The notes under the pieces were generated by a model, which saw only the letters and a list, made by a program, of their open reading frames with translations, did not search any database and had not been told where the DNA came from. A program made the position numbers and the translations under genes. This document shows positions 8,717 through 15,364 of a DNA stretch of 64,000 nucleotides, piece after piece. The stretch is from assembly GCF_057098645.1 (NCBI RefSeq), contig NZ_CM169472.1; one strand, 5' to 3'. The number at the start of each line of letters is the position of its first letter. The stretch's first letter is position 1.

Positions 8717-8843
8717 TTTAAATCAAGTAGTTACTCCATATTTAAATACACCACCTTTTCCTGCTGTGCCGTATTTGTGCCATTGTAACCCTGGCAATTA
8801 ATCAAAATACTGTTCTGACATCAGGCAATACAGGTGCAGACAT

Positions 8844-9743
8844 TTAAGCCAATTGCTGCCGCCATTCCTTGACGTGGTCAATCAGGGCGCGGAGCTTTGG
8901 TGCAATATTGCGACGCTGTGGGAAATACAGATAGAAGCCCGGAAATTGTGGAAGAAAGTCATCAAGCAGAGATACAAGCTTACCGCTTTCAATATATGGC
9001 CTGAAAGTTTCCTGAGTGGCAATTGTTATTCCTCCGCCGGCAAGAGCCAGCCTCAACATCAGACGCAGATCATTAGTCGTAATCTGTGGTTCAATCGCAA
9101 GGTCGAAAGCTCTCCCGTTTTCTTCAAATGGCCAGCGATAAGGCGCAACATCCGGGGATTGACGCCAGCCGATACACTTATGATTCACAAGTTCACGCGG
9201 ATGAACAGGTGTGCTGTTGGCTGCGAGATAGGAGGGAGAGGCAACGACCATTTCACGCTGCCTGCCGGTAAGGGGCACAGCAATCATGTCTTTTTCAATG
9301 ACCTCTCCGAGCCTTACGCCAGCATCGTAACCTGCGGCCACGATATCGAATTCCTCATCCGTTACAACAATATCAAGCGTAACGGCTGGATTGGCAGCTG
9401 CAAACGAAGCGATTAGCGGACCTGAAAGAAATTCTTCTGCTATCGACGTCACCGCGATTCTGAGAAGTCCGCGTGGCACATGGTCAGAAACCATCTCTTC
9501 GAACGCTGCCTCAATACCGGATAAAGGTAATGACAGCGATTTATGCAGCCGTTCTCCCGCTTCTGTCAAATTAACTGAGCGCGTGGTCCGCATTACAAGC
9601 ATTGTCCCGAATGCATCTTCAAGGCGTCTTATTCCCTGACTGACCGCTGAACGGGTAACGCCCAGCCGTGCGGCGGCTTTACTAAAATTACTCTCTTCTG
9701 CTACCGCGATAAAAATGGGTAAAAGATTAAGATCGATTTTCAT
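8844..9743 (-). CDS. LysR-family transcriptional regulator (299 aa)
   Basis: ORF track; N-terminal HTH LNLLPIFIAVAEESNFSKAAARLGVTRSAVSQGIRRLE and LysR substrate-binding domain. Confidence 0.8.
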   Translation of the reverse strand: MKIDLNLLPIFIAVAEESNFSKAAARLGVTRSAVSQGIRRLEDAFGTMLVMRTTRSVNLTEAGERLHKSLSLPLSGIEAAFEEMVSDHVPRGLLRIAVTSIAEEFLSGPLIASFAAANPAVTLDIVVTDEEFDIVAAGYDAGVRLGEVIEKDMIAVPLTGRQREMVVASPSYLAANSTPVHPRELVNHKCIGWRQSPDVAPYRWPFEENGRAFDLAIEPQITTNDLRLMLRLALAGGGITIATQETFRPYIESGKLVSLLDDFLPQFPGFYLYFPQRRNIAPKLRALIDHVKEWRQQLA

Positions 9744-9841
9744 TGTTTAATGCTGCTAACCACTGAGTACATTGAAAGCAGGATACTGGAACCAATCATA
9801 AAGTTCTATTCTCTCTCCGAACACATTTGAAGGAGAACGTA

Positions 9842-10564
9842 ATGGATAAGGTCATATTAATTACCGGCGCATCAAGTGGTATTGGGGAAGGTATTGCCAG
9901 AGAGCTGGGAACGACAGGTGCAAAGGTTTTACTGGGAGCACGCAGAGTTGAGCGTATCGAAGCCATTGCAACCGAAATCTGCCGCGCAGGAGGAATTGCT
10001 AAAGCGCGGGAGTTGGATGTCACAGACCGACAGTCCATGGCCGATTTCGTGCAAGCAGCGCTGGATAGCTGGGGGCGAGTTGATGTTCTTATCAATAATG
10101 CGGGCGTTATGCCGCTTTCACCGCTTGCAGCAGGAAAACAAGATGAATGGGAGCTCACTATTGACGTGAATATCAAAGGTGTACTGTGGGGAATTGGCGC
10201 TGTACTTCCGGTGATGGAAGCACAGGGTTCCGGTCAGATAATCAATCTTGGTTCTATTGGTGCCCTTTCTGTTGTGCCCACAGGCGCAGTCTATTGTGCA
10301 TCAAAATTTGCAGTACGGGCTATTTCTGATGGCTTACGGCAGGAAAGCTCGAAAATCCGTGTGACCTGCGTAAATCCTGGCGTTGTCGAAAGTGAACTGG
10401 CTTCAACCATTACCCATGTGGAAACCATGAAGGCAATGGACGCCTACCGTTCTGTTGCACTTCAACCTGCGGATATTGCCCGTGCGGTAAGGCATATTAT
10501 TGAATCTCCCGAAAGCGTTGATACAACCGAAATTACCATCAGACCCACTGCATCTGCAAACTGA
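9842..10564 (+). CDS. Short-chain dehydrogenase/reductase (SDR) family oxidoreductase; start at MDKVILITG
   Basis: ORF track 9827..10564; Rossmann motif ITGASSGIG and catalytic YCASK; aggag RBS 7 nt upstream of ATG at 9842; divergent from the LysR gene. Confidence 0.8.
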   Translation: MDKVILITGASSGIGEGIARELGTTGAKVLLGARRVERIEAIATEICRAGGIAKARELDVTDRQSMADFVQAALDSWGRVDVLINNAGVMPLSPLAAGKQDEWELTIDVNIKGVLWGIGAVLPVMEAQGSGQIINLGSIGALSVVPTGAVYCASKFAVRAISDGLRQESSKIRVTCVNPGVVESELASTITHVETMKAMDAYRSVALQPADIARAVRHIIESPESVDTTEITIRPTASAN

Positions 10565-10777
10565 AGAATAACTTTTACATTCACGTTTTATTAAATAGAT
10601 CAGAAGGAAGATTTATATATCCCTGTATTTTTCATAGCAAGATGCATTATGTATTGCTCACCCCGAAGGAGATGAAGGTTTAATTACAGAAAGATTATTT
10701 TCACAGGAAGTAAACATGACTCATGTTTAATGCCTTTATATATAAAACTCATTCTCTCAATTGTCAGGAGAATTAGC

Positions 10778-11008
10778 ATGAATACTATCTGTTCTTTAAT
10801 TGTTGTGGTTGCACTGTCTTTATTATCATTCAGTAGCGTCGCCAAAACGATTACTGCCGTCGGTTCAACCATTGACAGCACTGAAAAAGAAATTTCTTTA
10901 CAGGCAGAAAAACAAGGGAAATCATATAAAATTCTGGGCGCGTTTTTTAAGAACAGAGTTTATATGATAGCAAAGTTAACACCAGTCAGTAAAAATGATG
11001 CTTCATAA
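10778..11008 (+). CDS. Small secreted protein, DUF1471 (YdgH/BhsA/McbA)-like, about 76 aa
   Basis: ORF track 10730..11008 trimmed to MNTICSLIVVVALSLLSFSSVA (signal peptide) with aggag RBS; family assignment by resemblance to small periplasmic stress proteins, not verified. Confidence 0.45.
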   Translation: MNTICSLIVVVALSLLSFSSVAKTITAVGSTIDSTEKEISLQAEKQGKSYKILGAFFKNRVYMIAKLTPVSKNDAS

Positions 11009-13917: not shown

Positions 13918-13938
13918 AACCTCTCCTGAATTGATGCA

Positions 13939-13969
13939 AAGCCACCGGTCTATGGCCGGTGGCTTTTAT
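13939..13969 (+). terminator. Rho-independent terminator after the hydrolase gene
   Basis: aagccaccggtc tatg gccggtggctttt atc: GC stem plus T-run. Confidence 0.5.
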
Positions 13970-13992
13970 CCTGATCTTTGTGAAATTTCACT

Positions 13993-15186
13993 ATGTCGAC
14001 ACTAAGCCAAACACTATCACCTCATCATCAGCGCGCATACTGGGGCGGTATTTTTGCCATGACCCTGTGCGTGTTTGTGCTGATTGCTTCTGAATTTATG
14101 CCCGTCAGCCTGCTCACGCCGATTACCCGCGATTTAGGCGTGACGGAGGGGCTGGCAGGGCAGGGGATTGCTATCTCCGGCGCGCTGGCGGTTCTGACCA
14201 GCCTGACGCTTTCAACGCTAGCTGGAAAGATGAATCGTAAGTTCCTGCTGCTGGGGATGACGGTTCTGATGGCCGTATCGGGGCTTATTATTGCGCTGGC
14301 TACCAGTTATCTGATGTATATGGTCGGTCGTGCGATGATTGGTGTGGCCATTGGCGGATTCTGGTCGATGTCAGCGGCAACGGCGATTCGTCTGGTGCCG
14401 CAGCATCAGGTCACGCGTGCGCTGGCGATTTTCAACGCCGGTAATGCGCTGGCAACGGTCGTGGCCGCACCGCTGGGAAGCTATCTGGGGGCTACGGTCG
14501 GATGGCGAGGCGCTTTCTTGTGCCTGGTGCCTATCGCGGTTGTCGCCTTTATCTGGCAGTGTATTAGTCTGCCCAGCATGGATGCGAATAAAAGCCACGC
14601 GTCATTTGGCGCGGTATTCCGCTTATTTAGCCGCCGCATGGTCGTGGTCGGCATGATAGCTTGTGGCCTGTTTTTCATGGGGCAGTTTGCGCTATTCACC
14701 TATGTGCGCCCGTTTCTGGAGTCGGTGACACGGGTTAATTCCTTAGGCTTGTCGTTGATTTTGCTGATTATCGGCGTGGCCGGTTTTATTGGCACGCTGG
14801 TTGTTTCGACATTTCTCAACAGAAAATTCTACCCCACGCTGATGGCCATACCCGGACTGATGGCCGTCATTGCCATCGGTCTGATGCTTACCGGGCATCA
14901 CGTCTGGACGGTCTCGCTGCTGTTAGGACTCTGGGGCATGCTGGCCACCGCCGCGCCAACCGGATGGTGGACATGGATTGCGCGTACGTTGCCTGACAAC
15001 GCCGAAGCCGGAGGCGGGCTCATGGTCGCGGTGATTCAGCTCTCAATCGCCCTTGGATCAACGGCAGGAGGCATCGTGTTTGACCGCCTTGGCTGGCAGA
15101 GTACGTTTGCCATGAGTAGTGTGCTGCTCCTTTGCGCGGGCGTACTGACCTTTGTTACCGCACGCCAGAAGGCCGGTGCGCTTTAG
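13993..15186 (+). CDS. MFS-family transporter (397 aa, 12 predicted TM segments)
   Basis: ORF track; hydrophobic throughout, MFS-like motifs (GRAMIGVAIGGFWSMS). Confidence 0.8.
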   Translation: MSTLSQTLSPHHQRAYWGGIFAMTLCVFVLIASEFMPVSLLTPITRDLGVTEGLAGQGIAISGALAVLTSLTLSTLAGKMNRKFLLLGMTVLMAVSGLIIALATSYLMYMVGRAMIGVAIGGFWSMSAATAIRLVPQHQVTRALAIFNAGNALATVVAAPLGSYLGATVGWRGAFLCLVPIAVVAFIWQCISLPSMDANKSHASFGAVFRLFSRRMVVVGMIACGLFFMGQFALFTYVRPFLESVTRVNSLGLSLILLIIGVAGFIGTLVVSTFLNRKFYPTLMAIPGLMAVIAIGLMLTGHHVWTVSLLLGLWGMLATAAPTGWWTWIARTLPDNAEAGGGLMVAVIQLSIALGSTAGGIVFDRLGWQSTFAMSSVLLLCAGVLTFVTARQKAGAL

Positions 15187-15364
15187 TCCGGCGAGGGCGC
15201 GCGTTGCTGAATAAGTTACACAAGGCGATGAGCAACCACTATGGGTAGGGCGCTCTTTTAAACGATTTAGGTGATTTTCTAAAACGGCTACTGCAGATTT
15301 TTCTCTTAATTTATGGTATTTCCCCCGCAGGTGAGAAAGCGCTTTCCACGCCCGGCCGCAAGGA

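Follow-up and report, generated by a model that had tools for sequence, protein, structure and literature searches.

Two LysR-regulated cassettes between thrW and paoD of Escherichia coli O145:H28 as a probable old, eroding chromosomal flank of the thrW attachment site

The tRNA-Thr gene thrW is a classic integration hotspot of E. coli, and a group of strain-variable genes directly behind it raises the question whether these genes were brought in by integration at this site or belong to the chromosome beyond it. We analysed this question for E. coli O145:H28 in a stretch of 64,000 nucleotides (contig NZ_CM169472.1 of assembly GCF_057098645.1; referred to as the window), in which the interval 8717–15364 corresponds exactly to the gap from thrW to paoD. 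A preliminary description had treated the content of this gap, in the following termed the block, as an island at thrW. The data presented below are best explained by an old accessory chromosomal stretch, a mosaic of two cassettes joined by an AT-rich scar, which probably were acquired horizontally long ago and have since then accumulated differences at the same pace as the proBA and pao genes beside them. Prophages and islands would insert between thrW and the block and leave the latter on the far side of the attachment site, where it appears to be eroding by deletion. We hold this structural and evolutionary account with good confidence; the functional model for the two cassettes is tentative, and the account taken as a whole, including structure, evolution and function, appears to us reasonably probable.

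The gap consists of two LysR-regulated cassettes. Cassette A extends from 8844 to ca. 11000 and contains a LysR-type regulator (LysR1), a short-chain dehydrogenase/reductase (SDR) and a small secreted protein; cassette B (11625–15203) contains a second regulator (LysR2), an α/β hydrolase and a transporter of the major facilitator superfamily (MFS). Strong homologues were found for all six genes, whose assignment agrees with the RefSeq annotation of E. coli O145:H28 RM12761, a genome 99.96% identical to the first 24.4 kb of the window. The gene content of the preliminary description (LysR, SDR, LysR, hydrolase and MFS genes without integrase or phage gene) was thus borne out by homology and annotation. 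The features of the locus are:

8641–8716, plus strand: thrW, tRNA-Thr(CGU), integration hotspot (ARAGORN; Rfam tRNA, 71.8 bits)
8844–9743, minus strand: LysR1 (full-length yagP), 299 amino acids, divergent from the SDR gene (NCBIfam LysR models)
9183–15310, no strand: segment of 6128 bp removed in the K-12-type deletion (BLAST of the NCTC10973 and K-12 J53 loci)
9744–9841, no strand: divergent control region of cassette A, 98 bp (column identity, promoter scan, motif position)
9842–10564, plus strand: SDR, 240 amino acids (PDB matches, motifs, NCBIfam SDR models)
10778–11008, plus strand: small secreted protein, 76 amino acids with a signal-like N-terminal segment, third gene of cassette A
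11009–11624, no strand: AT-rich spacer, 616 bp, 37.7% G+C, short open reading frames only (composition)
11710–12594, minus strand: LysR2, 294 amino acids, divergent from the hydrolase gene (NCBIfam; PDB 3hhg)
12595–12780, no strand: control region of cassette B, 186 bp (alignment of eight orthologous regions)
12781–13917, plus strand: α/β hydrolase of the PA2218/YcjY family, predicted to be exported, 378 amino acids (PDB 2hdw and 5xb6)
13938–13968, plus strand: hairpin resembling an intrinsic terminator between the hydrolase and MFS genes (RNA fold)
13993–15186, plus strand: NepI-like MFS transporter, 397 amino acids (NCBIfam NepI model; alternative RefSeq start at 14059, 375 amino acids)
15365–16321, minus strand: paoD, bounding the interval

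The position of the block relative to the attachment (att) site does not correspond to that of an element integrated at thrW, the sole tRNA gene detected by ARAGORN. The 3′ end of LysR1 lies 127 bp past thrW. A repeat of the 3′ end of thrW, previously proposed as a possible mark of the island boundary, was searched for as a second copy of the terminal 26 nucleotides with up to three mismatches and is absent from the 64-kb window; likewise, a general repeat search revealed no direct repeat involving thrW between 8500 and 16400. No integrase or phage structural gene was found in 8717–15364 on the basis of open reading frames, annotation and a PHROG search, which only returned generic LysR, FabG-like and MFS families, and an Rfam scan of the interval gave nothing beyond thrW. 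Further information is provided by four genomes carrying an element at thrW. The K-12 locus confirms the presence of the CP4-6 prophage at thrW, where intF directly precedes yagP′, the K-12 remnant of LysR1. E. coli C harbours a CP4-6-like element with an integrase remnant, EC1515 an integrase-bearing island and O157 Sakai the P4-like prophage Sp2, each followed by the full block. The surviving integrase genes (K-12, E. coli C and EC1515) are localized at the element end adjoining LysR1. Moreover, the alignment of K-12 to the window restarts after the integrase at position 8665 inside thrW, which corresponds to a partial tRNA copy marking the attR site; the bases from 8665 on are the part duplicated by K-12 at the far end of CP4-6. 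Because all four genomes have their thrW element inserted between thrW and LysR1, the block constitutes chromosomal flank outside attR, and its designation as an island at thrW is only partly borne out. Among five features characteristic of tRNA-associated islands, the block displays the location next to a tRNA gene and the variable presence, and lacks the integrase, the att repeat and a place between attL and attR. The known thrW islands CP4-6, Sp2, Vat-PAI and PAI III536 share the hotspot and a strain-variable content with it; however, they carry integrases and, in the case of K-12 CP4-6, are bounded by a partial thrW copy, whereas the block has neither and lies outside of them.

The distribution of the block was determined in a set of 5426 complete E. 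coli genomes. Among them, 425 contain 80% or more of the interval, 912 cassette B (11700–15310) and 380–436 the N-terminal part of LysR1 together with the SDR gene, while paoD is found in 3596 and one specific deletion junction in 2683. Its accessory status was therefore correctly anticipated, as a block complete in 425 of 5426 genomes is not core at this position in all E. coli. The sum of the genomes with the junction and those with cassette B (2683 + 912 = 3595) nearly equals the number of paoD-containing genomes (3596), and almost every pao-positive genome therefore possesses either cassette B or that deletion. In about a third of the set (ca. 1830 genomes) both the block and pao are missing. 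The O157:H7, O55:H7 and O145:H28 lineages still carry the block, as does E. coli C, whereas K-12 has kept nothing of it but yagP′.

The common deletion joins position 9182 to 15311 at a microhomology of 5 bp (TTATG), and NCTC10973 shares exactly this junction with K-12. It leaves behind a remnant of 339 bp (8844–9182) comprising the 3′ third of LysR1, which corresponds to K-12 yagP′ with ca. 98% identity and is annotated as a ‘LysR substrate-binding domain’ pseudogene. The yagP pseudogene of K-12 accordingly resides at the same locus, at the junction between CP4-6 and paoD. Compared to the block, K-12 has lost the segment from the N-terminal 187 codons of LysR1 through 125 bp past the MFS gene and carries CP4-6 between thrW and the remnant. 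Since a truncated gene cannot be the original state, the common ‘empty’ allele represents a secondary loss and not the ancestral arrangement; this single event of 6128 bp would now account for about half of the sequenced genomes. Other alleles are also encountered. One lacks 9075–11120 and thus most of cassette A; in another, the homology to the window starts only at 11249 and is preceded by genes for an AbiE toxin-antitoxin system and a reverse transcriptase. In a B2 strain the homology ends at 8721 and resumes at 20424 (8722–20423 missing) with the Vat island in between; comparison of the integrase fragment at this junction with the CP4-6- and EC1515-type integrase ends gave no informative match. 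A match to yagP′ also occurs outside bacterial genomes, as the final 339 bp (44440–44778) of the record OP434518.1 of Escherichia phage phi458, annotated as ‘tail assembly protein’, are 97.9% identical to it; this may reflect host DNA at the record end or a junction in the CP4-6 region.

When the O145 window was compared with four other lineages, identities amounted to 98.1–99.7% for the cassettes, 98.1% for proBA and 97.7–99.1% for pao, with the non-coding stretches being more diverged. These values fit a long residence of the cassettes and their co-divergence with the flanks. Beyond E. coli chromosomes, both cassettes occur as separate units. Cassette A (8844–10995) aligns at 78–86% identity to copies on E. 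coli and Klebsiella plasmids, in a P2-like prophage and on Pantoea chromosomes, all of which keep the spacing of 98 bp between regulator and enzyme genes as well as the trailing small open reading frame. A LysR–SDR pair with 69% nucleotide identity is found on Sinorhizobium megaplasmids, in agreement with the top PDB match of the SDR (3tfo). In a JGI metagenome contig (L091, 5003–7543), cassette A, composed of LysR, SDR, the small open reading frame and one with an Atu4866 domain, is cargo of a P2-like prophage and sits between a replication gene (GPA, DinI) and the portal/terminase genes; from this placement we conclude that cassette A is able to travel as phage cargo. Cassette B aligns over exactly 11625–15203, with 91.6% identity to Kluyvera and 75–79% to Enterobacter, Hafnia and others. 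Neither proA nor thrW nor pao is found near the cassette B copies at these loci of other genera, and seven of eight loci scanned are devoid of tRNA genes, the eighth (Aeromonas) containing unrelated ones. Further copies reside on plasmids of Klebsiella, Kosakonia, Pantoea and Salmonella, and the hydrolase cluster at a threshold of at least 90% identity includes strains of Citrobacter, Serratia and Enterobacter. As both cassettes occur as units on plasmids, in prophage and in chromosomes of other genera, an old horizontal origin is indicated. Additionally, 33 E. coli genomes carry a LysR–hydrolase pair ca. 78% identical to cassette B; in the two listed examples, A37 and MIN6, the match is limited to these two genes, and a relative of cassette B may thus have been acquired independently.

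The joint between the cassettes is formed by the AT-rich core of the interval (33–38% G+C). Its spacer (11009–11624) contains only short open reading frames and no convincing gene, and the Atu4866-like gene which follows cassette A on plasmids was sought there and not found. However, self-BLAST identified the stretch 11363–11479 as a 117-bp copy (87–94% identical) of the 3′ region of ykgR near 30.7 kb, and RefSeq labels it a ykgR pseudogene fragment. Because this fragment is kept in alleles without cassette A, it is considered the scar of an old rearrangement. The ykgR gene itself (30733–32170) is interrupted in the window by an insertion of 1.33 kb at 30769–32099 with an open reading frame of 301 amino acids, probably an insertion sequence (IS) element; ykgR of RM12761 is intact.

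Two other histories of the block have to be weighed on this basis. The start 127 bp behind thrW, the variable presence, the low G+C content of the core and the occurrence of the cassettes on mobile elements elsewhere would also be compatible with a true thrW-integrated island, whose integrase and att repeats decayed beyond recognition. We consider such an origin highly improbable, because no integrase fragment and no thrW repeat is left even with three mismatches allowed, because the thrW elements of four genomes lie between thrW and the block and the K-12 attR is on the thrW side of yagP′, and because the homology to foreign copies stops at the edges of the cassettes and not at one common island boundary. 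The location outside the att site, in turn, would suit an ancestral, vertically inherited and now eroding part of the Escherichia backbone, in which case the plasmid-borne copies and those of other genera would be exports or independent paralogues. A divergence between lineages equal to that of the flanks and the wide spread of remnants (2683 genomes with the junction) are in line with this scenario as well. It is nevertheless unlikely, although the more serious contender: the closest copies outside E. coli are located at unrelated loci with sharp cassette boundaries, and the joint of the cassettes is an AT-rich scar with a ykgR fragment. Furthermore, an identity of 91.6% between the E. coli and Kluyvera versions of cassette B exceeds the level generally expected for vertically inherited genes of these organisms. 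An old horizontal acquisition of two cassettes is therefore preferred; a few observations weigh against it. Recombination between strains could mimic a vertical co-divergence, and an absence of the B2 type fits either the loss of the block or never having had it. The occurrence within the genus is also to be considered. The best 80 species-representative matches of the hydrolase contain no orthologue from another named Escherichia species, which disfavours the ancestral backbone too, and the names of cluster members include ‘MULTISPECIES [Escherichia]’, which favours it.

Both regulators show full-length matches to many LysR models of NCBIfam, and the orthologues in cassette A copies carry the domains PF00126 and PF03466. 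LysR1 and LysR2 share 30% pairwise identity. Each gene is divergent from its neighbour, and the shared intergenic regions of 98 and 186 bp each contain a box of the T-N11-A type as a predicted binding site. The best NCBIfam model of LysR1 is YafC (161 bits, under its cut-off); its Sakai orthologue ECs_0305 is annotated as yagP. In the control region of cassette A, a candidate T-N11-A motif is located at 9757–9769 and the promoter scan detected a promoter-like site (TTGAAA, 16 nucleotides, AATCAT) at 9772–9799. Across the E. coli, plasmid, prophage and Pantoea copies this region reaches a mean column identity of 93%, compared to 78–86% for the entire cassette.

The SDR contains all classical signatures of the family, i.e. 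the TGxxxGxG cofactor motif (TGASSGIG at residue 8), NNAG at 85 and the catalytic Ser-Tyr-Lys residues including YxxxK (YCASK at 151). An Arg-Arg pair after the second strand, represented here by ARR at 33, is typical of NADP(H)-preferring SDRs. The closest PDB entries are 3tfo from Sinorhizobium meliloti (E = 1.3e-122), clavaldehyde dehydrogenase (2jah, 7.6e-46) and YdfG (3asu, 1.8e-30), and the enzyme falls into the classical NADP(H)-type subgroup of these proteins and of the YdfG/YMR226C group. An assignment as equivalog of YdfG, an NADP-dependent 3-hydroxy acid dehydrogenase, was rejected with 137.5 bits against an NCBIfam cut-off of 411. As every NCBIfam equivalog score is under its cut-off, the substrate cannot be transferred from a relative; the motifs rather suggest that the SDR probably is an inducible NADP(H)-dependent carbonyl reductase or alcohol dehydrogenase. 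The third protein of cassette A, previously described as DUF1471-like, is real as a small secreted protein and 60% identical to the 73-residue product whose reading frame follows that of the SDR in the copies on plasmids and in the prophage. Its relationship to the YdgH/BhsA/McbA (DUF1471) group turned out to be weak (BhsA, 22 bits with a cut-off of 90, E = 1.5e-4; Pfam PF07338, E = 0.048), while size and signal-like N-terminus are in keeping with it. In the proposed scenario, LysR1 would sense a small molecule and activate the synthesis of the carbonyl reductase and the small secreted protein.

In cassette B, LysR2 resembles PDB entry 3hhg (7.5e-40), and a regulator of its type is retained together with the hydrolase at 37 of the 80 loci of other species. 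A predicted LysR-type box ATAACAATATGGTAT (ATA-N9-TAT) is found at 12637–12651 and a perfect −10 element TATAAT at 12698–12703, combined with a poor −35 element; when eight orthologous regions from several genera of the Enterobacterales are aligned, the box ends and the −10 element prove invariant. A box together with a good −10 and a poor −35 element is the usual layout of a LysR-activated promoter. LysR2 might bind the ATA-N9-TAT box ca. 65 bp upstream of an activator-type promoter and switch on the hydrolase gene. The leader between the −10 element and the hydrolase start (12704–12780) contains an additional block, AAAGCAC.GCAGCGTTGTCC...GAAACCTGT, which is kept in most of the aligned Enterobacterales genera and could represent either an RNA element or another operator.

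The hydrolase is closely related to PA2218 of Pseudomonas aeruginosa (PDB 2hdw, 5.4e-124) and more distantly to E. coli YcjY (5xb6, 4.8e-44). The similarity to PA2218 is at the orthologue level over 341 residues and includes the GICGWGG nucleophile elbow and the NHVDLYD region around the histidine; as PA2218 is a structural-genomics protein without assigned function, this match provides the fold and not the activity. Neither Pfam, with weak matches to PETase, Abhydrolase_1 and DLH only, nor NCBIfam offers a specific family, the best NCBIfam match being the UilS-family acyl-homoserine lactone (AHL) lactonase (E = 2.8e-18, 66.6 bits). In an alignment of 81 sequences from many phyla, 85 residues are conserved to at least 97%, among them C168, H353, D355 and D194. 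The earlier term ‘Cys-hydrolase’ is thus appropriate in the sense of an α/β hydrolase with a Cys nucleophile, not of an isochorismatase-type cysteine hydrolase. A signal peptide is predicted for residues 1–30 (MKAF...MSYA, followed by DP), and signals of the Sec, Tat or lipoprotein type are present in nearly all homologues, the exceptions being a few Firmicutes and one archaeon. The RefSeq model of the hydrolase starts at 12859 and encodes 352 residues (MSYADP...). Because the open reading frame extends to an ATG at 12781, yielding MKAFTRMLKTAMPAMLLFASLSGVTTMSYA in front of DP as a Sec-type signal conserved across the family, and because the form of 378 residues is deposited for O55:H7 and Citrobacter, the RefSeq start appears to strip off the signal peptide; its correction alters the predicted compartment of the enzyme. 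We propose that the hydrolase might act as a Sec-exported, periplasmic esterase or lactonase of the Cys-His, dienelactone-hydrolase-like type.

The MFS protein resembles NepI as well as sugar- and chloramphenicol-efflux pumps. Its start is ambiguous, as the one at 13993 (397 residues) matches the N-terminus of NepI and RefSeq prefers 14059. An identification with the purine ribonucleoside efflux pump NepI itself was discarded at 291.5 bits with a curated cut-off of 584; since the score is below this cut-off, the transporter is regarded as a NepI paralogue in the same MFS subgroup. At 19 loci of other Proteobacteria, transporter and hydrolase are conserved together. The trio LysR–hydrolase–MFS recurs in Psychrobacter and Luteimonas, and the order LysR–MFS–hydrolase in several Alphaproteobacteria. 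In the proposed model, the pump may transport the substrate of the hydrolase, or the product formed from it, through the inner membrane. Members of the hydrolase family in other phyla are accompanied by genes for cyclophilin-like proteins (PF18050), mandelonitrile lyase-like cupins, aldo-keto reductases, carboxymuconolactone-decarboxylase, flavodoxin/WrbA-like proteins and Mac-type acetyltransferases. These neighbourhoods weakly support a role in small-molecule or carbonyl detoxification, and the theme of a small-molecule detoxification under LysR control advanced by the preliminary description is, in view of the aldo-keto reductases, flavodoxin/WrbA-like proteins, cupins and carboxymuconolactone-decarboxylase, plausible; its narrower assignment to quinones or electrophiles gained no support. 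Judged from their sequences, both cassettes look like inducible modules for the handling of xenobiotics or carbonyl compounds.

The nearest K-12 relative of the cassette B enzyme, YcjY, provides an instructive comparison and the basis of a different functional reading. In K-12, pgrR (ycjZ)–ycjY likewise consists of a LysR regulator gene adjoining that of a hydrolase of the same family. According to a review, YcjY possesses the GXCXG motif known from enzymes with a Cys nucleophile (PMC3709699), and it is listed in an operon regulated by PgrR, a LysR regulator whose gene is the neighbouring ycjZ (PMC5934670). YcjY and its paralogue in the window (see below), however, have 306 residues, no signal peptide and no MFS partner and are ca. 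32% identical to the cassette B enzyme, which is predicted to be exported and contains a longer lid insertion. The operon of ycjY includes mpaA, and PgrR has been called a regulator of peptidoglycan recycling (PMC5934670); the hydrolase might therefore be an enzyme of YcjY-like cell-wall peptide turnover or, following its best NCBIfam match to the UilS family, a quorum-quenching AHL lactonase, with the MFS protein importing the product. The predicted periplasmic location fits both. We rate these alternatives as rather improbable, as the UilS score is far under the cut-off of 400 bits and restricted to the N-terminal half, genes for reductases, cupins, flavodoxins and acetyltransferases, not those of quorum sensing or murein metabolism, adjoin the family in other phyla, and the nearest MFS models are efflux pumps.

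The detoxification model, which we favour tentatively, is itself confronted with several difficulties. The substrate class, the links between regulators and targets, the direction of the MFS transport and the periplasmic location of the hydrolase were all deduced from sequence. The nucleophile elbow reads G166-I-C168-G-W-G-G and does not follow a strict G-X-C-X-G pattern, and the putative catalytic residues are limited to C168 and H353. In addition, the hairpin at 13938–13968, with a stem of 13 bp followed by UUUUAU, has a folding energy of −25.3 kcal/mol (z = −5.6; none of 200 shuffled sequences folds as well), and a terminator between the hydrolase and MFS genes implies that the two may not be co-transcribed.

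Further observations concern the surroundings of the block. The paoC gene (16331–18529) contains an in-frame stop at 17003–17005 (GSGG*WGANTS), and the paoB stretch (18526–19481) comprises 956 nucleotides, which is no multiple of three. The periplasmic aldehyde oxidoreductase beside the block thus looks inactivated in this strain, as far as the reading frames tell. In RM12761, paoC is intact and paoB is flagged as frameshifted by RefSeq; the paoC gene of EC1515 is likewise interrupted by a stop codon. Another module with a comparable design is found at 32644–36033 and consists of genes for an NADH-flavin oxidoreductase, a YcjY-like hydrolase of 306 residues and a divergent LysR regulator. In its hydrolase–LysR pair (34030–36033), named ycjY and ycaN in Sakai, the hydrolase lacks a signal peptide and shares 32% identity with the cassette B enzyme, and the identity between the regulator and LysR2 amounts to 29%. 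The adjacent segment 36613–55156 (18.5 kb) is absent from RM12761, where an IS3 element is present at the joint. The genomes best matching a wider query (30000–54900) annotate fdeC, rclA, ykgF and hyxB in the queried stretch. The window thus stems from a close relative of RM12761 and not from RM12761 itself.

The analysis explains the origin of the K-12 pseudogene yagP and identifies the ‘empty’ thrW–paoD junction of most E. coli as a derived deletion. Moreover, it separates the true thrW attachment site from a decaying flank, which matters for the automatic delimiting of thrW islands. The strain-variable flank of thrW is genuine, yet nothing unusual, and current views are not overturned by it. 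It draws attention, however, to two portable LysR–enzyme cassettes of the O157:H7, O55:H7 and O145:H28 lineages that are absent from K-12, and the literature searched contained no functional study of PA2218, YcjY, yagP or Sakai ECs0305–0311. Members of the hydrolase family retain 55–60% identity from Proteobacteria to Bacteroidota, Firmicutes, gut Melainabacteria and a Methanobacterium (among the matches listed). As a conjecture that we put forward with little confidence and that would fit this conservation, the 85 near-invariant residues, the almost constant export and the recurrent link to a LysR sensor and a NepI-like pump in Proteobacteria, the compact family typified by PA2218 might act on one specific, widespread extracytoplasmic substrate, e.g. 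a plant-, host- or microbe-derived lactone or ester. If so, cassette B of E. coli, present in O157:H7, would offer a tractable entry to that substrate.

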